Below are positions 1,811 to 60,387 of a stretch of DNA of 60,723 nucleotides, piece by piece (positions within the stretch are counted from its first letter, which is position 1; each line of letters starts with the position of its first letter). The notes beneath the pieces are model-generated. The model saw only the letters and a list, made by a program, of their open reading frames with translations, was not told the DNA's origin and made no database searches. This DNA comes from an uncultured virus (IMG/VR IMGVR_UViG_3300022602_000040) (Duplodnaviria > Heunggongvirae > Uroviricota > Caudoviricetes). The position numbers and the translations under genes are program-made. The stretch lies in IMG/VR virus record IMGVR_UViG_3300022602_000040; one strand, written 5' to 3'.

Positions 1811-4800
1811 TTATTCTCCAAGTCTTGAAAGAATAGCATTCAACTTCTCTTCCATTGTATTTAGTTTGATTGCTTGCTGGTCAATGGCCATTTGCTGTTC
1901 TTTGATAGCTTCGATCAACAGTGGGACAAGTTTGTCATATTGTACAGTCTTGTAGTTTTCACCACTCATACTGATCTCATTACCGTCTTCATCCTTGTCA
2001 ATATCGAACGGAGCAGGTACAACAATCTCTGGTAGAACAGCTTCAACTTCTTGAGCGATAACACCGATCTGTCTCTTTGTATCAGTGTATCCATGCTTGG
2101 CAGCGGTTTCATTCGCACGATAATAGACGCCAGAAAGCTGCTTGACTTTATCGATAGCGTAAGGTATTGTGCTTTCAATATCCTTCAGACGACCATCAGA
2201 GTAATACGAAGTGATGTTGTTTGTAGCACGAATTTCACCTGTTGTACCTGAAGCAGCCGTACCAACACCAATTGATGTGAAAGCGCCGTTGTTCGGAGTG
2301 GTCGAACCTATGGATCCAGGAGCTGCCCAGTTCGACCCATTCAAATACGCGACGTTTAGGTTGTTGACCTGTGTTGTTGAGGAAACGGTAAACGGAGCTG
2401 TACCAGTCGCAACCGTACTTGTAATTACGCCCGAGAACGATCCTGTTGTATGTGCAGCAGAGTTAGCAGTGCCGCTACCAAGAGCAGCAGGAGACGCCCA
2501 AGTATAACCACCGAAGTACGTTGCGTTGTTGGACGTCAAGGTTGCAACGTTAGCAGAAAGCGTACTATTCAACTGATACGAAGCGGCAGCAGTACCACCA
2601 AGATATGCAGCATTATTCGAAGAAATAGTTGCAATATAAGCAGAGTTAACTGTAATTGTACCGGAAGTATTGATCAAACCTGTACTGAAAGTATACGTAG
2701 TCGGTGTTGTCCAATATGGGGAACCGGTAGCACCGTTAGAGGTCAACACTTGACCAGCAGTACCCACACCACCGTTTGCACTTAGCGGAATACCAGCAAC
2801 AGTAACCTGAGAAGTATTGGCAATAAAAGAAGTACCGACAGNNNNNNNNNNNNNNNNNNNNNNNNNNNNNNNNNNNNNNNNNNNNNNNNNNNNNNNNNNN
2901 NNNNNNNNNNNNNNNNNNNNNNNNNNNNNNNNNNNNNNNNNTATGGGGAACCGGTAGCACCGTTAGAGGTCAACACTTGACCAGCAGTACCCACACCACC
3001 GTTTGCACTTAGCGGAATACCAGCAACAGTAACCTGAGAAGTATTGGCAATAAAAGAAGTACCGACAGTCAATAGTGCAGAGTTGACTGATGTTGTCACA
3101 TTCGCAAAGCCAGTAATTGTTGTGTTACCGGTAATACCAATTGTTGTTACGTTAGCAGATGTGGCAAGACGGATACCACCAGAGTTGGATGACCATGGTA
3201 TAATAGACAGCGAACCAGAACCAACAGTACCACCAGAGTATACGATTGCCCCGTCACCAGCTTGTGTGATAGGATTGTATGCGCCAGCGGCCATCCAAGC
3301 GCCAGAAGAAACGTACTGGCTGCCGTTCTTAACAGTTAACACAAAGCTAGTACTAGCAGTACCGGTAGAATCAGCGGTGATAAGTGGTGTTCCGGTAAGC
3401 AGTACCTGAGATGAGTTAGCTATGAAAGTTGTACCAACGGTATGAGACGCAGCGTTAACGGTGGTAAAATTACCTGTATTGGCTGTAGTACCGCCAAGTG
3501 CGGCAGGAGCACCCCATGAGTAACCATTAAATGTAACTGCATTATTTACGTTTAGGTTGCCTTCGGTCTTACCATTCACATATGTGGTATTGTTGGCGGA
3601 CAGGGTTGCTACGTTCCCCGACAGACCAGCAGTCGTCTGATAACCAGATGCGGCTACACCACCAAGATACGAGGAATTGTTTGAAGACAATGTCGCAACG
3701 TTTGCAGCAAGCGTGCTATTCAACTGATACGAAGCCGCGGCAGTGCCACCTAGATAGTTGGCATTATTTGAAGACAATGTCGCAACGTTAGCAGCAAGAC
3801 CAGCAGTTGTCTGATATCCAGAAATAGATGACCAATATACGTTACCTGAACCGTTTGAGGTCAAATATTGTCCCGCACTTCCCTGCGAACCTGTCGAGTC
3901 AATGATCTTGGCGCCAGAAGCAATCGTCAAGTTAGCGGTTGAAGTTAGACCAATGTTTGCAGCCGCAACAAAATTTCCGGAAAACACGTTGCCAAAATAA
4001 AAGGATGTTGATCCTAAATCCAAACCAAGATTGGCTACTGGAATTAAGGAGGTATAATTTAAAATCAGTTTACCCGTCGTTGCGGATGAGTTAGACACAT
4101 AAAACGAAAATCGCGATGGAACAAATCCCGAGTTAGCGACTGGTGTGCCGTCCACGTTTACTTTAAAGTAAGCTGTCTGTACACTGGTATTACCATCGTG
4201 ACCACTGAATACAAATGTACCCAAGTCGTCGCCGTTCTGAACAATACCACCAGCTCTTGATTTGCTTGAGTTCCAATAACCTGCAGTTGTGTCATTCAAA
4301 GAGTGCGTTAATTGGATCTGGGGGTTGTACGAAGTAGACGACTGTAACGTAAGAGTCGTATTAGACAGCTGGGCGTTAGATGTGGTATTACCAAAGAACA
4401 AAATTGATGTATTGACAACAAACGAAGAACCTATTGTGTACGAGACTGCGTTTACTGTAGTGAAGTTACCTGTGTTGGCTGTTGTACTGCCAAGAGCTGC
4501 AGGAGATGCCCAAGTGTAACCACCGAAGTATGTTGCGTTGTTTGAAGTTAACGTACCTATGGTAGCTGTATCAACTATTCTCGTCCAGCTACCAGCAGAA
4601 TGTTCCTTATACCAGAACCCGCTACCAGAAGTACCCATCAAAGAGAAACCTCTCGTGGATACGTCACCCGCGCCCATACCAAACCAGTAACCTATACCCC
4701 CCATACCCGATGGTACGTTGGTGGATGTACCCATATTTACAAATCTTGTCTCATACAATGAAGGCTGTAGAGAAAGATCATAACCATAATAGGTTCTACC

Positions 4801-7800
4801 ACCATTCATTGTGGTATAAGAGACTACCTGACCAGTGGTTGCTGTAGCTGTATTGGCAACACCACCGAACTGGTTTGTAGTCAAAGTGGTAAACGTACCA
4901 GCGTTTGCAGTAGAACCACCGATAGCTGCAGGTGATGTCCAACTATATCCGTTGAAGTAGGTAGCGTTATTAGATGATAGAGTAGCAACGTTTGCACTCA
5001 ATCCAGCAGTCGTCTGATAACCAGATGCAGCAGTTCCGCCAAGGTATGAAGAGTTGTTGGCATTTGTTGCACTGTTGACGTTCAAGTTACCTTCGGTCTT
5101 ACCATTTACGTAGGTTGTATTATTCGCTGTAAGTGTTGCAACGTTGCTTGCAAGCGTGCTATTCAACTGATAAGAAGCAGCAGCTGTACCACCCAGGTAG
5201 TTGGCATTGTTAGCTGTAATGTTTGGCTGAGACGCTGTTGTTAGTGTACCAGCAATGTTGTTTGCATACACGTTCCATACAAGCGAGGTGCTACCAAGTG
5301 TTAGGTTGTTGGCTGCTGGCACAACGTTGACGTTAGACTGCCATGCTGTCTGTGTTGCGTTGTATACCAGGTTAGCTGACGTAGCAATAACGATACCAGC
5401 ACCTGTAGCGAGCGCATTTGTCGTTGCGTTGTTGGCAAGGATGATGTTGAGATCGTTCGTCGTAATAGAAGTTGCGTTGACGAATGTGGTAGTACCAGCC
5501 AGCGTCAAGTTGCCGGTTACGGTCAAGCTACCATTGATCAAACCATTACCAGAGACGTTCAACGACCCTACGTTTGCATATCCTGTATGAGTAATACCTA
5601 CAGTATTTGCAACAAAGGTTGTTCCGTTTAGAGAAATAACGGCTGGAGATATCGATGTATTAGTTGTAGTGTTTGACTGTATGAGCAGGTTGTTAGCAGT
5701 CATCGCAAGATTTGCGGTGGTTGTAACAAGTACTTCAGCAACGCTGTTACCATAACCATACACAGTCGAGTTACCGCTATAGAAATGTGTCGAGTTAGCA
5801 TAGGTATTAACTGTGGAGTTACCCACACCATATTGAGATGTGTTAGCATAGAATCCACCAATGGTCGAATTTCCGTTTATACTAACACTTGCAGGACTCA
5901 TTGTGTTGTTGGATGTGGTGTTCTGCAACAAAATAGAAGTCGCAGTCATTACCAAGTTTCCAGTAGTGCTTACCAAAACTTCCGCTGTACTGTTCCCATA
6001 TCCATAAACAGTACTGTTACCAGCATAGAAATGGGTGGAGTTAGCAAACGTGTTGACGGTTGAGTTACCAACTGTTATGGTGGTCGCATTGGCCAAGAAC
6101 TGACCTGTTGTAGCTCCACCGGTAACCAGAATCGTTCCTGTGTTTGCATATACGTTAGCACCGACGTTGGCGCTTGTTGCGGCATAGAGAGTAGCAGTGT
6201 TTACTTGGTTGACTACGTTGATTGCCGCAGCATTGACCAAGGTAGCGTTAGCCGTGAAAGACGTACCGACTGTGTACGACGATCCATTAACAACACCGGT
6301 ATAGTTTGGTAGATACGCAGCAATACTTGTATTGACTGCCGCCAAGGTTTGGAATGTCGAGTTTACATATGAGTTAGACGCCGCATACGTATAGATTGCA
6401 GTATTTTGCGCAAACGTCGAATACATGGTCGTATTTGATGCAGCGTATGTGTTCTGCGCAAACGTAGAATAGACAGCACTGTTTTGTGCAAAGGTACTGT
6501 ATACAGATGTGTTCTGGGCGAATGTGGAATAAACGCTTGTATTCTGTGCAAAAGTACTGTAGATTGTTGCAGCAGTATTACCACCAAGAGTTGTCGCATA
6601 TACACCAGAAGAGTTGGCTACAACCGTGGAACCAACGGTAAACGCCGCTGAGTTGACAGATGTCGATACGTTCGCAAACCCTGTAATTGTAGTATTACCA
6701 GCAGTCAGTACGGTCACGTTTGCCGTATTGGCAGTAGAACCACCGATAGCTGCAGGAGCTGTCCAACTATATCCGTTGAAGTATGTGGAGTTATTCGCAG
6801 TACCAGAAAAAGCGGTAGAGTTAACTACCGTATAGACCGAACTGTTTCCGATCGTGATATTAGCAGCAACGGTCACACCGCCTGCCCCCGAAACACCCAA
6901 AGCAGCCGAAGCAGTATTGGATGCTGACTGGTATACACCGAAAGCAGGTGCGATCTGATTGTTCGCGTTACCATATACGTTCAGAGCAGCCGACGTTGTT
7001 GATGTCGCTGTTACGTTGAGGGGAGTTATGATAGACGATGGGTTCACATAGATGTTTCTTACGGAAACAAATATCGAACCACTGTTTGCAGATGTGGTAA
7101 CAAATCCCATACGAACAGGATAATATGGGTTCGATGGAATGGTACTAGTTAGACCACCGTTTACTGTTGGTGACAGGTATAGAGTCGATCCGACAGAATA
7201 AGATGCAGTATTGATTCCAGAAATAGAACCAATGATATTGATATATCCGTAGGAGTTATTTGGAATGGTGTTGTTAGTGACACCAATAGCCTGTGCCGTC
7301 GATAGTACAGCGGCACTTGCCAACGCTATAGTTGGAGCGTTATTGTATTGACCTGAAATGTATACAGCAGAGTATGCGTTTATCGTCGCGCCAGTATTGT
7401 TATACACATACTGTATAACTTCTTGACCGAGCTGAACTTCTTCACCAGCCGAGTTCCAATAACTCAGGCTGTCGTTGTTCGAATCATACCAAACTAGACC
7501 CGTTTGTGCGGTTGGTGGTGTAGATAGACCCGTAAAGGTCATACTACCTGTCACAGCAATGTTGTTAGCAGTCAAACTAGATCCGAATACAGCGTTACCG
7601 GAAATATTCGCTGTACCTGTAACAGACAGTGTTGCAGTAGGTGTAGAGATCGAACCGATCGATACGTTACCACCAAGAGGATTCAAGTTGATTGGGTAAT
7701 AAGTACTACCACCGTTGTAGCCAGACTGAATCCACTGCGAGAACGTAGTCGACTGACCAAACGCTAGATAGTTACCACCAGAACCACTCATGTACAAATA

Positions 7801-55196: not shown

Positions 55197-55910
55197 TTAC
55201 TTGTCAAAGGACGCCTTTACTGAACTGGTATTGATAGCAGCACCAGTTGCTGCGTAGTTCATCGAGCTAGTTGCATACCAATCCATAGTCGAGTTAAGCG
55301 TCTGAGCACTACGGGTATTGAGAACCTTCGACGAATCAAGACCGTAGCTGGTTGCGACGTTGTCAGCATTGAATTCAGCTCCGAGGAACACAACTTCCCA
55401 ACCACGCTTCTGGCACGTAGCAATACGGTCACGAATAGCAGCAAGAGTGTAGGCCTTGGACGTGTTCTCTTCACCATCGGTCATGATCAGAATAACAGTC
55501 TTCTTGTTGTTTTCTGCATCAGCCAGATTGATAAGGCGAGCGGTAGCGTCGTACAGCGGCGTACCACCACGAGGGGAGTATTCGTTGATATCGATATCCC
55601 TGAACTCGTTGATGTCGACCTTGTTGCGTACGATGTCGAACGAAATTGGATCAGGATACTCGATTGCCCGAGCGCCGAGAGCACCGTTTGGATTCATCTG
55701 AATACCGCCAACGTTGTTGTTCCATACGGCTGGACGGAATCCGTTATTTGAGTCGAAAGCAGCTACAGTAATCTCCGCAGCAGCGTTTTGCTTGCGGAGC
55801 GATTGAACGTACGTATTGATTGAGCCGATAGCATTTTCCCAACGCGATCCAGACATCGAGCCTGAGCGGTCGAGAAGAATGTAAGCGGAAAGTTTAGTAG
55901 ACTTTGCCAT
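55197..55910 (-). CDS. vWA-domain protein
   Basis: MIDAS motif LLDRSGSM, PRGGTPLYDA, IMTDGEENTS, WEVVFLGA; start at ATG 55910 from the GGAG SD. Confidence 0.88.
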   Translation of the reverse strand: MAKSTKLSAYILLDRSGSMSGSRWENAIGSINTYVQSLRKQNAAAEITVAAFDSNNGFRPAVWNNNVGGIQMNPNGALGARAIEYPDPISFDIVRNKVDINEFRDIDINEYSPRGGTPLYDATARLINLADAENNKKTVILIMTDGEENTSKAYTLAAIRDRIATCQKRGWEVVFLGAEFNADNVATSYGLDSSKVLNTRSAQTLNSTMDWYATSSMNYAATGAAINTSSVKASFDK

Positions 55911-56017
55911 GTGTATTCTCCAGTGTGTAAAGACGGTTACAGGGTCCGTCAACAGCTTTTCGTACTGTCTGCTCTATTTTCACGCCAACACTATCGCAGT
56001 TGGCTGCGGCAGCATCA

Positions 56018-57430
56018 TTAGAGGGCGTATCGCTCGGACGATACAGCCTTCTTCATGATAGCTTCTGGAGTGAATCCATCCATGTCAGCGGCGAGAACCG
56101 ACTTCATGATTGATGGAGAGAAACCAGAGACCAGAGCAGTGCCCTTTTCGTCGAACTTGACTGGGACATTGTCTGCTGTGTTGAGGTTCCAGAATACGAC
56201 GGATGGTGCCTCGTATCCTGCCTGTTCGTACTTACGGCGGATCATTTCGATCGCCGAGTCATCGTAACCACGGCAGCAGTTGAACTGCATGTCCGACAGG
56301 ATAAGGAGAACCTTAGGCATGTCGGTTGCAGCAACCTTGTTGGAAACAGCAACCTTTAGGATCTCATCGAACGCCTTGTGCAGGTCGGTCGACATTTCCC
56401 AGTTTGCAGTTTCCATCTGACGGATCTTCTGCGAGAGAGTACCCTTCATATGCTGGAACTGTGGACGGCTGGAGAAGGTCAGGAACAGGTCCTTGAACGC
56501 TCCAGTGTTCTTGTCTGCAAGGTAAAGACCAAGCGAGACAGCGACGTCGAGACAAGTAGTTGCGTTAGCTTCATACTTACCACCGACAGGTGAAGTCATC
56601 GACCCCGAGACGTCGACCAATGGCAGAACCATTGCATCACCAACAAAGTTAGGCAGAGCCTTCCACTGTTCGTCGGCAAGAGCCGAGTCACCACGACGGA
56701 CGTTCTTGACGATGTCGTATGGATAGACTGCACCAGCGTTGACCTTCGCAATCTTAGGATCGCCCTTCTTCAGAGCTTCCTTGTAGGCGGTGAATGCCTC
56801 AGGAGCATTCTTACCAAACGCCTTCGAGTAACGGCTCATAGCCAGCGAAGGAACGTGTGAGAAGTTGATCGAGTCGAACTCCTTAGCGCACATCTTTTGC
56901 TCGACGACCTTGGTCAGTTCGACCAGACGCTTACGGTAGTACTTAGGACTCCAACCAAAATAGTTACGAAGCTCAAGAGCGAGAGGACCCTTACGTGGCA
57001 TCCACTTTGCGCATAGACCATTACCATCTTCAAGCGCCTTACGGATCAGGCCAAACGCCTTCTCCTTGACAAAAGCATTCTCGAAAATTAGAAGGTCATC
57101 CCAACGTCCGATCTCAGCGGTATTCTCGAGAATACGAGTGTTGAGCAGCTCGTCCTTGTAGTTCTTCTCGAGGAACTTGAGGGTCTGACGGAAAAGCTCG
57201 CGCTCACCGGCACCACCACGGACGTCACGAGCCCACTGAGCGACACGAAGTGCCATCTCACGATCTTCGTGATACGCCTTCTCGAACTGCTTGGTAATAT
57301 CCTTACCACGCGATGCACCGATCTTGAAGAACAGGTCGGTAGTGTTGGAAAGAGACGACTTGAGAGCCTTCATACCGTTCCAGGTACGAGCTTCGGTTGG
57401 GGTTGCAAGAACTGCGGACTTAAAAGACAT
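56018..57430 (-). CDS. DUF2828-family protein (helical domain plus C-terminal vWA; probably TROVE/Ro60-like)
   Basis: DLFF, RDVRGGAGER, GRWDDL, AKWMPR, VPSLAM, LVDVSGSM, ILSDMQF, VFWNL, LVSGFSP motifs; start at ATG 57430. Confidence 0.82.
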   Translation of the reverse strand: MSFKSAVLATPTEARTWNGMKALKSSLSNTTDLFFKIGASRGKDITKQFEKAYHEDREMALRVAQWARDVRGGAGERELFRQTLKFLEKNYKDELLNTRILENTAEIGRWDDLLIFENAFVKEKAFGLIRKALEDGNGLCAKWMPRKGPLALELRNYFGWSPKYYRKRLVELTKVVEQKMCAKEFDSINFSHVPSLAMSRYSKAFGKNAPEAFTAYKEALKKGDPKIAKVNAGAVYPYDIVKNVRRGDSALADEQWKALPNFVGDAMVLPLVDVSGSMTSPVGGKYEANATTCLDVAVSLGLYLADKNTGAFKDLFLTFSSRPQFQHMKGTLSQKIRQMETANWEMSTDLHKAFDEILKVAVSNKVAATDMPKVLLILSDMQFNCCRGYDDSAIEMIRRKYEQAGYEAPSVVFWNLNTADNVPVKFDEKGTALVSGFSPSIMKSVLAADMDGFTPEAIMKKAVSSERYAL

Positions 57431-57450
57431 ATTCATTCTCCATATTATAC

Positions 57451-57547
57451 AGGTTAAGTGTGGACTGTTCAAGTTCCACGAGTTTTGCTACGTATGAGAA
57501 CATAGTAGCATCGGTTCGGTAAACTGATTAAATGCTGTAGTTAACCT
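57451..57547 (-). ncRNA. CAGCA-stem element E1
   Basis: AGGTTAA-C-TACAGCA...TTAACCT-G; internal hairpins TGCTAC/GTAGCA and GTGGA/TCCAC. Confidence 0.7.
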
Positions 57548-57556
57548 TTAATCAAC

Positions 57557-57618
57557 GGGATCAACTTTTGCGTTTTTGATTAGAAGTCAAATGCATAGTT
57601 GTTTGCTGAACTGATCCC
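57557..57618 (-). ncRNA. CAGCA-stem element E2 carrying an Arg(UCU) anticodon-arm mimic
   Basis: GGGATCA-G-TTCAGCAAAC...TTTGA-CTTCTAA-TCAAA...TGATCCC-G. Confidence 0.72.
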
Positions 57619-57634
57619 AAATTCAATTTTCAAC

Positions 57635-57892
57635 GGGTTGTGCCAGTCTTTACGTGCTCTACCAACTGAGCTACACCCCCATCAACATCCATTACGTCAG
57701 GTATTTCAGCCGCTAAACCGAAACCTTGTCGCTACCCAATATGTACCGCTATGATCACTTGCGAGTAGATCAGAAAGCCACTGCCGCTGAACTTATCAGG
57801 GAAAGAGGTAATGAATGATGGTGGGGGTGGCGGGATTCGAACACCGCGACACCGTCCTTTCACAGATTGACTTTGTTTGCTGAAGACAACCC
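57635..57892 (-). ncRNA. CAGCA-stem element E3: circularly permuted tRNA mimic (YrlA-like architecture)
   Basis: GGGTTGT-C-TTCAGCAAAC, then T arm plus CACCCCC-A-CCA (57857-57819), a 138-nt insert, then GGGGGTG-TA-GCTC-AGTTGGTA-GAGC (57680-57652), closing with ACAACCC-G. Confidence 0.82.
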
Positions 57893-57902
57893 TAAACTTT
57901 AG

Positions 57903-58274
57903 TTATACAGCGAGCTTGTAGACTCGGTTGTATTGAAGAGTGGTGATACGAGTACCATTCGTTTGACGATATTCGTACGGACCGTACACCTTCTCACGAA
58001 GCTCATTATATTCCGGTGTACCGTACTTAAAGTTATGGCCTTGCATGCCCTTCCAAAAGTCACGAGGAGCAAGCTCATCGGTACCCTTCACGAAGTAAGC
58101 CCAAGCGCCAGAAGGAACCTCAGCCTGAGCAGACTTGCCACACATGCCGACATACCTACCCTTCCGCGTGGATGTGTTGCCAGTGCAGGTGGTTACAACC
58201 ACAACTTCGTCACCAGGATTGATCACCTGACCGAAGTCGTTAGTAAACGGAACAGCTTCACGTACATTTGCCAT
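57903..58274 (-). CDS. Hypothetical protein
   Basis: 123 aa, GGAG SD, NDFGQVINPGDEVV (SH3/KOW-like start). Confidence 0.75.
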   Translation of the reverse strand: MANVREAVPFTNDFGQVINPGDEVVVVTTCTGNTSTRKGRYVGMCGKSAQAEVPSGAWAYFVKGTDELAPRDFWKGMQGHNFKYGTPEYNELREKVYGPYEYRQTNGTRITTLQYNRVYKLAV

Positions 58275-58291
58275 AATAAATCTCCGTTAGA

Positions 58292-58316
58292 TGGGGCGGG
58301 TGTGTTTCCCGCCCCA
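58292..58316. other. GC-rich intergenic hairpin
   Basis: TGGGGCGGG-7 nt-CCCGCCCCA; no U-tract on either strand, so it may be a processing or stabilising stem. Confidence 0.6.
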
Positions 58317-58332
58317 GTAGACTCTTTATACC

Positions 58333-58713
58333 TTACTTCCGATTTACAGACAACAGGTTAAATGCCATAAGCACGTCTCTGTGGTCTGCAGAGATGGGAT
58401 AAACGCTAATTGACGTGAACTCCCCCTCCTTGAGGTCTGGCTCGAAAAACTTCTCGTATCGATAACCAAACTTTTTAAGGATCCTTTCCACTGCGTACAG
58501 AGCACCGAGATCACGAATGCCGATAACGGTAAAGTAGGTCTCGGATGGATCGATTTCCTCGTTAATCTGGCATGGCACCAGAGATTTCAAGTTATCGACA
58601 TCCACGACTCGTTGAGATCGCACACCAAGCAGAAACGCTGCGTGAGCAGTCTGAACAATCTGTTGCTCAGGACTGATGTCCTGACGAGTGAAAAAGTATG
58701 CGTAATGTTTCAT
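58333..58713 (-). CDS. PTH2-like peptidyl-tRNA hydrolase
   Basis: Y.FTRQDI...Q..VQTAHAA and F.EPD...FTSI...P match the PTH2-fold pattern seen in large phages. Confidence 0.7.
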   Translation of the reverse strand: MKHYAYFFTRQDISPEQQIVQTAHAAFLLGVRSQRVVDVDNLKSLVPCQINEEIDPSETYFTVIGIRDLGALYAVERILKKFGYRYEKFFEPDLKEGEFTSISVYPISADHRDVLMAFNLLSVNRK

Positions 58714-58714
58714 A

Positions 58715-59092
58715 TCAAAGATTCCTCACGAAGGCAGGATCGATCATCTTGCGGATTTCACGAAGCTGCTCAATTTCATTCTCATCAAACATCTCATCCA
58801 ACGAGACACCAAACACGGTGCCGGATGTAACAACAAACTTTGTACCATCCCATTTACGAGAAGGACCAAGGCTCCCATACCAGATATTGTTGATAATGCT
58901 CTGATATGGATACTGTCGGTGGGCGCAAACCCTACCTGGAGTAAATGCTTTTGTGAGAAAATGTTTGAGGATTGTAGCCTTGTCTTCTGACTTAGCTCTC
59001 ATGGTTTTGTAGATACACAGCATGATCATATCATTAGCTGTGAGAGATTTAGAGTGGGCCTTAGCCTTGAATGCAGTAATAAAATCAGTCAT
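58715..59092 (-). CDS. Hypothetical protein
   Basis: 125 aa, AAGGA SD, abuts the PTH2-like gene. Confidence 0.75.
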   Translation of the reverse strand: MTDFITAFKAKAHSKSLTANDMIMLCIYKTMRAKSEDKATILKHFLTKAFTPGRVCAHRQYPYQSIINNIWYGSLGPSRKWDGTKFVVTSGTVFGVSLDEMFDENEIEQLREIRKMIDPAFVRNL

Positions 59093-59587: not shown

Positions 59588-59664
59588 TGGCGCGCATGGC
59601 GGGACTCGAACCCGCATCGTACAGTTTTAGAGACCGACATGATAACCAATTTCACTACACGCGC
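59588..59664 (-). tRNA. Amber suppressor tRNA, anticodon CUA (Trp-like anticodon arm)
   Basis: 77-nt cloverleaf GCGCGTG-TA-GTGA AATTGGTTA TCAT-G-TCGGT CTCTAAA ACTGT-ACGAT-GCGGG TTCGAGT CCCGC-CATGCGC-G-CCA; anticodon at 59630-59628. Confidence 0.9.
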
Positions 59665-59856: not shown

Positions 59857-60387
59857 ATGTCAACTGTTTATTTATACGTAAAACAGCATTCAATTACCGG
59901 ACTCAAATACTTCGGTAAAACGGTGTCATCCAATCCATTCAAATATATTGGTTCTGGAAAGAGATGGTTAAATCATTGTAGGAAACACGGTATAAAATAT
60001 ATCAAAACCCTAGAAATTTGGGGATTTGATGATCAGCAGCTATGTACTGCTTTTGCGTTAAAATTCTCAAAAGAGAACAATATTGTCCAATCAAAACATT
60101 GGGCTAATCTCATGGAAGAGAACGGCAAAAGCGGAGGAGCTGTAGATAACAATTATTTTAAAGTATTTAATAAAATTCCTAGAACTACCAACCACAGTAA
60201 TAATATTTCTAGAGCATTAAAGGGTGGACGAAAGCCACCGCAAAACAGTACTCATAAAAATAGAATAGCACAGACTTTAAAAGATAAACCTTTAAGTATA
60301 TGTCCTCATTGCAATAAACAAGGACGTATGATCGGTAGATTCTTAGGAAGTCACTTTGATAAATGTAGTCAACGGGATGTTATTTGA
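59857..60387 (+). mobile_element. GIY-YIG homing endonuclease (HEG4), antisense to the RNA cluster
   Basis: YLYVKQH..TGLKYFGKT...Y.GSG..W..H..KHG, WANL..ENG, CPHC...HFDKC. Confidence 0.85.

Follow-up and report, generated by a model that had tools for sequence, protein, structure and literature searches.

The locus and the layout of module A

We analysed a 60,723-nucleotide (nt) stretch of DNA, referred to here as the window, from an uncultured virus (IMG/VR record IMGVR_UViG_3300022602_000040), a phage T4-like freshwater myovirus that encodes gp32, the gp59 helicase loader, a late-transcription coactivator and the baseplate proteins gp5, gp6, gp25 and gp53. A gap of ~470 nt between two of its minus-strand open reading frames (ORFs) is mostly filled by an RNA element that we call module A, in which the parts of a tRNA stand in permuted order: a T arm, a 7-base-pair (bp) acceptor stem and a D arm, with an encoded ACCA and a 138-nt insert separating the two acceptor strands. 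The gene downstream on the same strand encodes a 471-amino-acid (aa) protein with a predicted Ro60 fold, and module A is very probably a YrlA-type Y RNA, the non-coding partner of this protein. The anticodon arm is cut to 3 bp (ACG/CGT), and its strands run on into a stem closing the RNA, so that there is no complete arm with a 7-nt loop. The features of the locus are as follows, those of module A being given in the direction of the RNA.

57630..57892, minus strand: module A, very probably a YrlA-type Y RNA, 263 nt, delimited by the module signature scan, alignment and covariation
57886..57892, minus strand: closing stem, 5' strand GGGTTGT, pairing with 57635-57641
57878..57885, minus strand: unpaired conserved motif CTTCAGCA, family consensus NTNYMGCA, directly 3' of the closing-stem strand
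57872-57869, minus strand: AGTC, pairing with GACT at 57648-57645, from the sequence layout
57855-57853, minus strand: ACG, forming 3 bp with CGT at 57654-57652, from the sequence layout
57852-57848, minus strand: variable loop of five bases, from the sequence layout
57830..57847, minus strand: T arm, GCGG(U)G-TTCGAAT-CCCGC, with compensatory changes in two pairs
57823..57829, minus strand: acceptor 3' strand CACCCCC, pairing with 57674-57680
57819..57822, minus strand: encoded ACCA, that is, discriminator A plus CCA, invariant in 15 of 15 permuted elements
57681..57818, minus strand: insert of 138 nt, with an extended helix and three inner hairpins, its last four bases being UGAU
57674..57680, minus strand: acceptor 5' strand GGGGGTG, partner of CACCCCC
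57656..57671, minus strand: D arm, GCTC-AGTTGGTA-GAGC, with 87.5% of cells paired and no covariation
57635..57641, minus strand: closing stem, 3' strand ACAACCC, partner of 57886-57892
57630..57634, minus strand: invariant GTTGA tail (family GTWGA), 100% identical and part of the module signature
57552..57618, minus strand: module B, a Y-like RNA of 67 nt found by the signature scan, with homologues in loci L005, L006, L007 and L009
57444..57472, minus strand: sigma-70-like promoter match TTGAAC-17-TATAAT, with 10 of 12 consensus positions, a pattern match only
56018..57433, minus strand: gene of the 471-aa protein with the predicted Ro60 fold, starting 197 nt after the end of module A

A first-pass annotation, made by a model from the letters alone, had described a permuted element in which the 3' half precedes the 5' half, with a perfect 7-bp acceptor, ACCA and a 138-nt insert. 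We found the sequence to be as described, on the minus strand, and the ends predicted there (57819 and 57680) coincide with the 3' end of ACCA and the start of the acceptor 5' strand. The extent given, 57635..57892, holds, except that the element runs 5 nt further, to the invariant GTTGA at 57630. The proposed terminal CAGCA stem had to be replaced: the actual stem is GGGTTGT/ACAACCC, and CAGCA is part of the unpaired motif CTTCAGCA. The T stem is present, but with a bulged U (GCGG-U-G/CCCGC) that recurs in some homologues and is absent in L009 and L010. As for the pairings suggested inside the insert, TTCATTAC/GTAATGGA covaries and TGATC/GATCA is partly kept (84% of cells), but TTCAGC/GCTGAA is not (44%), and local hairpins form in that region instead.

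Homologues and covariation

Through the downstream protein we reached 59 related viral loci. The element itself was recognised by blastn in L006, L009, L010, L014 and L015, and a blastn search of 50,697 phage records returned no match to it. An exact 24-nt pattern had no match in viral contigs; a pattern with the acceptor and NCCA positions set to N was found in 9 viral and 61 metagenome loci. A permuted arrangement that includes a D arm is present in 15 of these 70 matches; the other 55 resemble ordinary tRNA 3' ends. All 15 permuted elements carry ACCA after the acceptor and UGAU before the acceptor 5' strand. The copy at L210 is identical to the window's element.

We then scored a structure of 51 pairs in an alignment (A3) of 12 homologous sequences, using as controls the same structure with partners slid by 1-3 columns and 500 shuffles. 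In A3, 98.2% of cells were paired as compared with 32-47% in the slid controls, 18 pairs had changed on both sides as compared with 2-3, and the covariation score was reached by none of the 500 shuffles. RNAalifold found compensatory changes in 25 of 74 pairs in one run and in 18 of 47 pairs in another. The fold of the single sequence is weakly better than that of shuffled sequences (z -1.94), eight of 200 shuffles folding equally well. Covariation supports the closing stem, with 7 of 7 pairs kept in all 12 sequences and both-side changes in three of these pairs, the T stem, the acceptor stem, all seven pairs of which show such a two-sided change in one or more of the 12 aligned sequences, and the extended helix leading from the acceptor into the insert; for the D stem it was never seen in this 12-sequence alignment. 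The acceptor stems differ between lineages and all pair: GGGGGTG/CACCCCC, CCGAGTG/CACTCGG, GGGGGCG/CGCCCCC, GCGGGTG/CACCCGC, GTGGGTG/CGCCCAC and GCCGGTG/CACCGGC. Because compensatory changes recur across the homologues, we conclude that the two halves do pair. One ground on which the first-pass annotation would have given up its reading, namely that they do not, is thereby removed.

Regional identity was computed among eight long forms. It is 100% for ACCA, for UGAU (positions -4 to -1) and for the GTWGA tail, 90% for the motif after the closing stem, 81% for the T arm, 76% for the insert core, 74-77% for the acceptor strands and 49-60% for the linkers. The contrast between the insert core and the linkers indicates that the insert is under selection. 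In L006 an insert core of ~85 nt is absent and the extended helix is retained. The consensus fold allows the invariant UGAU to pair with A73, C75 and A76. The insert is a conserved, structured enlargement, specific to this lineage, of the loop by which the acceptor stem of other YrlAs is closed; with ACCA included, this acceptor loop measures 142 nt.

The downstream protein has a predicted Ro60 fold

The 471-aa protein belongs to PHROG 850, 'RNA-binding protein' (E 7e-146), and matches the Pfam families DUF7788 and DUF2828. We aligned 28 homologues of it. Its AlphaFold2 model reached a pLDDT of 83.4 and a pTM of 0.83 and comprises helical residues 1-260, resembling a ring of helical repeats, and an alpha/beta part at 265-471, resembling a von Willebrand factor A (vWA) domain with a MIDAS (metal-ion-dependent adhesion site). 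The 13 best Foldseek matches in the Protein Data Bank (PDB) are all Ro60/TROVE structures (E 9.4e-10 to 1.2e-5), including Xenopus Ro, D. radiodurans Rsr and the Ro60 of Thermus phage phiLo, and isolated vWA domains follow; full-length alignments to Ro60 structures gave TM scores of 0.5-0.63. The DxSxS MIDAS motif (D274, S276 and S278) is invariant in the 28 sequences. As modelled, the protein is a remote DUF2828-type branch of the Ro60 fold.

The family is widespread, with tblastn matches to the 471-aa protein in 711 of 50,697 cultured-phage records. Among these matches are 95 from Mycobacterium phages, which had been assumed to represent Bxz1-type Ro; we dropped this link, as the Bxz1 Ro is not significantly similar. 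A search of titles and abstracts found no DUF2828 literature on phage or RNA.

Part of the region 56900-58300 was present in 24 public sequencing runs, and four RNA runs were compared as contigs. Contigs from the RNA runs cover the Ro60-like gene from 56936 to 57390 with 100% identity at a depth of about 2, and one contig of a relative covers 57398-57562. Of module A they cover nothing but a 31-nt stretch over the D arm, within an otherwise unlike contig; such contigs can show neither ends nor absence.

Module A is very probably a YrlA-type Y RNA

The first-pass annotation had read the layout as that of YrlA, and this reading is supported by the arrangement of the element, the adjacent gene and a homologue. 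The consensus structure of Rfam YrlA (RF02553) has the same architecture as the window's element: T arm, acceptor and D arm in this order, on a stem formed by the two ends of the RNA. Module A also shares with YrlA its place beside a Ro60-type gene and the strand of that gene. A 123-nt RNA in loci L011 and L012 has the closing stem and motif of module A, and its acceptor TCTCTCC/GGAGAGA is closed by an 8-nt loop, GCCACTGT. This short-loop form from L011 aligns to the whole YrlA model, but its 40.9 bits (E 2.5e-6 in that scan) do not reach the gathering score of 69; a second short-form copy in L014 scored 41.2 bits, likewise below 69. Module A represents no new class and belongs to the bacterial and phage Y RNAs.

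It is already published that tRNA-mimicking Y RNAs lie beside Ro60, in phages too. The passages of Chen et al. 2014 on which we draw (PMC4201824) report likely YrlA RNAs near Ro60 in more than 250 bacteria and phages, among them three YrlAs of 136, 172 and 128 nt upstream of the Ro gene of phage CcrColossus. Tandem copies in phages are thus a further likeness. Module A differs from YrlA in having NTNYMGCA in the place next to the closing stem where the Ro-binding GNCGAA stands in known YrlA, in its DUF2828/DUF7788 partner protein and in the length of its acceptor loop. By analogy with Ro60/Y RNA systems, the CTTCAGCA motif would presumably be the docking site of the Ro60-like protein, and the GTTGA tail is possibly a processing or binding signal.

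The phage phiLo offers a close comparison. According to the parts of the report cited here (PMC12135203), it has two Y-like RNA genes just upstream of its Ro60 gene, the protein binds both RNAs, and phiLo Ro60 forms a complex with the host polynucleotide phosphorylase (PNPase). Its Ro60 (PDB 9KOP, 9L5Y) is also the best structural match to our protein. A difference is that its RNAs (Yrl1 and Yrl2) were found by a CGAA bulge motif, and those parts of the report do not mention a tRNA-like domain. In sequence, the phiLo protein and ours are marginally alike (profile E 0.013). A jumbo-phage survey, in the part cited here, describes TROVE proteins with a tRNA-like partner in some phages (PMC7824862).

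Chen et al. (PMC4201824) further note that some YrlAs, such as that of Stanieria, have a "longer acceptor stem". In their YrlA-II seed alignment, A-CCA comes after the acceptor strand of Stanieria and leads into an insert that is A/U-rich and ~100 nt long, and Calothrix and Chondromyces show G-CCA; the passages of the text that were searched leave the encoded CCA without comment, the figures and one supplement lying outside that search. In the CcrColossus record, the locus of the 172-nt YrlA reads CGCGTCC, ACCA, a hairpin of ~30 nt, GGGCGTG and a D arm. The YrlAs of Stanieria cyanosphaera (230 nt) and CcrColossus (172 nt) thus share with module A the order of acceptor 3' strand, ACCA, insert, 5' strand and D arm, and the claim that ACCA plus an insert sets the element apart from known YrlA is not supported. 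The inserts themselves differ: in module A three hairpins form a conserved domain, and the 5' strand is preceded by an invariant UGAU, unlike the A/U-rich segment of Stanieria, and the CcrColossus hairpin is followed by C at position -1 where the module A family has U. What distinguishes the present family is its DUF2828-type Ro60 branch, NTNYMGCA, the conserved structured insert and the family-wide 7-bp acceptor, RCCA and U(-1).

Several results weigh against the YrlA assignment. In a permissive scan of 57400-58100, the window's element had no Rfam YrlA match even at E <= 10. The Rfam scoring suggested in the first-pass annotation gave matches below the gathering scores, to YrlA through homologues such as that in L011 and to part of the model of permuted transfer-messenger RNA (tmRNA), at 20.8 bits. 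Among 49 related records searched with the YrlA model, 17 had E <= 0.01 and none passed the cut-off; these weak matches were not used, because 9 of 14 control genomes also match. GNCGAA (published as GNCGAAN0-1G) is absent from modules A and B, in which the only CGAA is that of the T loop. The 471-aa protein has no Pfam TROVE match, Pfam giving DUF2828 and DUF7788 only, and phmmer found no match to it in the PDB. In a profile search of PDB sequences, the two phage TROVE chains head the list, weakly (E 0.013), and pairwise BLAST is insignificant against accepted phage Ro proteins (Bxz1, E 0.11; CcrColossus gp139, E 0.006). Since sequence similarity is weak, the Ro60 assignment draws on the predicted fold.

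If module A acts as Ro60 partners do elsewhere, its closing stem and motif would dock on the Ro60-like ring, its tRNA-like head would engage tRNA-recognising proteins of the host, for instance PNPase or a similar exoribonuclease, and the particle would redirect RNA decay or repair during infection.

Module A is the first of a tandem array

Module A shares with its neighbours a signature that consists of a 7-bp stem beginning RGGNNNN, the motif NTNYMGCA, the complementary strand at the far end and then GTWGA. This signature occurs 25 times in the window and 10 of the 15 closest loci (L005-L007 and L009-L015), always on the strand of the Ro60-like gene, compared with a mean of 0.95 and a maximum of 5 in shuffled sequence. 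The whole 60.7-kb window contains exactly two, modules A and B. Module B has the closing stem GGGATCA/TGATCCC, the motif GTTCAGCA and a GTTGA end; its interior is a 5-bp hairpin with an anticodon-like 7-nt loop, CTTCTAA, and the loops of its homologues read CTTGTAA and CTCTTAA. Between relatives the modules differ in number, order and type, and every one keeps its own closing stem.

In the cultured Synechococcus phage BUCT-ZZ01, three signature modules occupy a 360-nt gap upstream of the homologous gene. A relaxed scan of the distant loci L016-L059 gave 57 matches on the gene strand and 32 on the other strand; it is too noisy to count, and several clusters lie just upstream of the gene. Near the homologous gene of Stenotrophomonas phage DLP_6 there was neither a YrlA match nor a signature module.

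Some relatives mix permuted and non-permuted tRNA mimics in the same array. Modules of ~100 nt at L010:1888-1990, L014:1354-1455 and L007:2205-2300 hold a non-permuted tRNA-like body, with D, anticodon and T arms, in the same closing stem, and Rfam tRNA matches them at model positions 5-66, that is, without the acceptor stem. Just downstream of the Ro60-like gene of BUCT-ZZ01, two Rfam tRNA matches of 113-114 nt (L262:4575-4687 and 4705-4818) span the full model and must therefore contain long inserts. In CcrColossus (L265:1658-2720, minus strand) at least five tandem Y-like units, each beginning GGTGGCGTAG, can be seen by eye upstream of gp139; the 2014 table lists only three, and GenBank annotates part of one as tRNA-Gln.

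The acceptor end and its possible processing

Module A has the features of an RNase P substrate, with the 7-bp acceptor and the 5-bp T stem stacked as 12 bp, R73-CCA and U at position -1. RNase P prefers U(-1) and RCCA. All 13 of 13 distinct family members have the 7-bp acceptor, RCCA and U(-1); in 10 of them ACCA is followed by an insert of 54-139 nt, and in three the loop measures 8-10 nt, although these members are related and do not represent 13 independent events. The YrlA-type module at L006:199-334 has a 7-bp acceptor, GCCA and U(-1). As a control, nine other phage permuted YrlA-like RNAs with a 7/7 acceptor were taken from among the matches listed in viral contigs; RCCA is present in one of these nine, and their -1 base is G in four, T in two, A in two and C in one. 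The rarity of RCCA and U(-1) in the control RNAs marks the combination as a trait of this family, and because the three features are invariant in it, the element looks like a substrate of RNase P.

The idea of RNase P processing, put forward in the first-pass annotation, is not new. In the passages of PMC4201824 cited here, the YrlA of M. smegmatis, which has a 7-bp acceptor, is cut by RNase P in vivo and by M1 RNA in vitro; the 5' half has CCA at its end, each half co-precipitates with Rsr, and the authors raise possible aminoacylation. This RNA is a precedent for a cut at the 5' end of the acceptor with CCA on the other half. It differs from module A in its 4-nt loop and in the addition of CA after transcription, whereas module A encodes the full CCA and continues for 134 further bases. 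Cleavage of module A in vivo between 57681 and 57680 may well take place, though on the present comparison we consider it slightly the less probable outcome; it would yield two pieces that base pairing and the protein keep together, as in M. smegmatis YrlA. Two points weigh against it. Pairing of ACCA with UGAU would extend the helix through the RNase P site, and the degree of conservation in the insert core matches that of the tRNA-like parts, so that a retained domain fits better than a discarded spacer.

A fuller maturation scheme for this family of phage Y RNAs, which is rather unlikely, would have host RNase P cut before G57680 and a 3' nuclease trim after CCA. A conserved insert of 134 nt would be freed as a small RNA of its own, and a two-piece, anticodon-less mimic with a free CCA would sit on the Ro60-like ring. 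An array that also includes anticodon-loop-like and whole-tRNA-like modules would then present every face of tRNA. Its possible roles would be those of a decoy or sensor for defences of the host that target tRNA, such as anticodon nucleases and toxins that modify the CCA end, or alternatively of a handle that recruits tRNA-binding enzymes.

Still less probable is the complete proposal of the first-pass annotation, in which RNase P and 3' trimming excise the insert and the resulting two-piece mimic is aminoacylated. The invariant acceptor features and their scarcity in the control RNAs speak for it, as do the cleavage, the CCA end and the suggested aminoacylation of M. smegmatis YrlA; CCA is encoded by all phage tRNAs examined, and relatives carry true permuted tmRNA genes, as found by ARAGORN and Rfam, so that their hosts probably mature such precursors. 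Against it stand the conserved (76%) and structured insert core, which is unlike a spacer, and the ability of ACCA to pair with the invariant UGAU. Aminoacylation in itself has at most a slim chance, because the acceptor sequence varies widely: the first pair is G1-C72 in the window and C1-G72 in L009. With no G3-U70 and no anticodon either, no constant set of synthetase identity elements is visible, which argues against a conserved amino-acid identity.

Other explanations for the element

It is very unlikely that the structured region is chiefly a cis-acting leader controlling the Ro60-like gene, and not a trans-acting RNA. Its position directly upstream on the same strand would suit such a role. 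The 10 nt that separate module A from the upstream ORF showed no promoter match, and co-transcription with the flanking genes is therefore likely. However, the sigma-70-like promoter match sits between the RNA array and the Ro60-like start codon, the variable modules each retain their own closing stem, and known Y RNAs likewise lie upstream of Ro60 and act in trans.

Even less credible is a functionless remnant, decayed from two tandem tRNA genes or left as an integration scar. A dimer would indeed leave the order 3' half, ACCA, spacer and 5' half, the phage tRNAs here encode CCA, and a 12-nt direct repeat, TTCAGCAAACAA, flanks module A. The proposal is nevertheless already contradicted by covariation, since compensatory changes maintain the pairing of the halves across homologues. 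The element also keeps its place and strand with respect to the Ro60-like gene. The repeat is explained by the closing-stem motif that the tandem modules A and B share and is not a duplication scar. A tRNA dimer may still be the evolutionary origin of the element. Permuted tRNA genes of red algae and some archaea also place the 3' half before the 5' half, and yield a complete tRNA with an anticodon loop; module A differs in its anticodon arm of only 3 bp, which merges into the closing stem.

That the element is itself a permuted two-piece tmRNA gene (RF04321) can be practically dismissed: the Rfam tmRNA_permuted model matches its T arm, acceptor, CCA and 5' acceptor strand (20.8 bits, E 0.041) and relatives have such genes nearby, but the match covers only model positions 36-95 of 213 and lies below the gathering score of 47, ARAGORN finds neither a tmRNA nor a tag peptide in the window, the D arm is canonical, the 5' half enters the closing stem directly with no coding part or tag frame, the third acceptor pair is G-C and not G3-U70, and L009 carries the element together with a separate true tmRNA 1-2 kb away. 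The tmRNA comparison made in the first-pass annotation fails as a classification on the score, the missing tag frame and the D arm. The likeness that remains is in the order of T arm, 3' acceptor strand, CCA, intervening segment and 5' acceptor strand, and maturation of two-piece tmRNA by tRNA-processing enzymes serves as the model for the proposed cleavage.

The permuted tmRNA genes of the relatives are found at 1131-1596 in L002-L004 (1205-1670 in L003), L007:270-609, L009:502-841 and L020:351-755. They lie 1-2 kb upstream of the Ro60-like gene, and their tags end in LAA or RLAA. These genes hint at hosts that use two-piece tmRNA. The 60.7 kb of the window contain no permuted tmRNA gene.

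Genomic surroundings

Rfam at curated thresholds and ARAGORN found a single tRNA in the window, with anticodon CTA. This amber-reading tRNA (59588-59664, minus strand; labelled tRNA-Pyl by ARAGORN) is conserved near the array in L002, L006, L007, L010, L011 and L012, and TAG terminates 7 of 49 crude ORF calls in the window. An ORF beside it (59857-60387, plus strand) has a weak match to a homing-endonuclease PHROG (E 4.3e-5). Upstream of the array, two small minus-strand ORFs (58333-58713 and 58715-59092) have no family match; of the 59 loci, 8 and 5, respectively, have them again in this place. A 251-aa vWA-domain protein (55197-55952, minus strand; PHROG 7371) is encoded two genes downstream of the Ro60-like gene and co-occurs with it in 3 of the 59 loci (L006, L010 and L013). 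A run of 100 N at 2842-2941 of the window is an assembly gap or a masked stretch.

Significance

The present analysis ties a widespread unnamed phage family (DUF2828/DUF7788, in 711 of 50,697 records) to Ro60/Y RNA biology and gives it an RNA signature, composed of the closing stem, NTNYMGCA and the GTWGA tail. Because the cultured relative BUCT-ZZ01, which grows on S. elongatus PCC 7942, has the same signature, experiments are feasible. The family is suited to the question of whether some Y RNAs mature like tRNAs, as seen once in M. smegmatis, and to that of the role that the tRNA-like head plays during infection.

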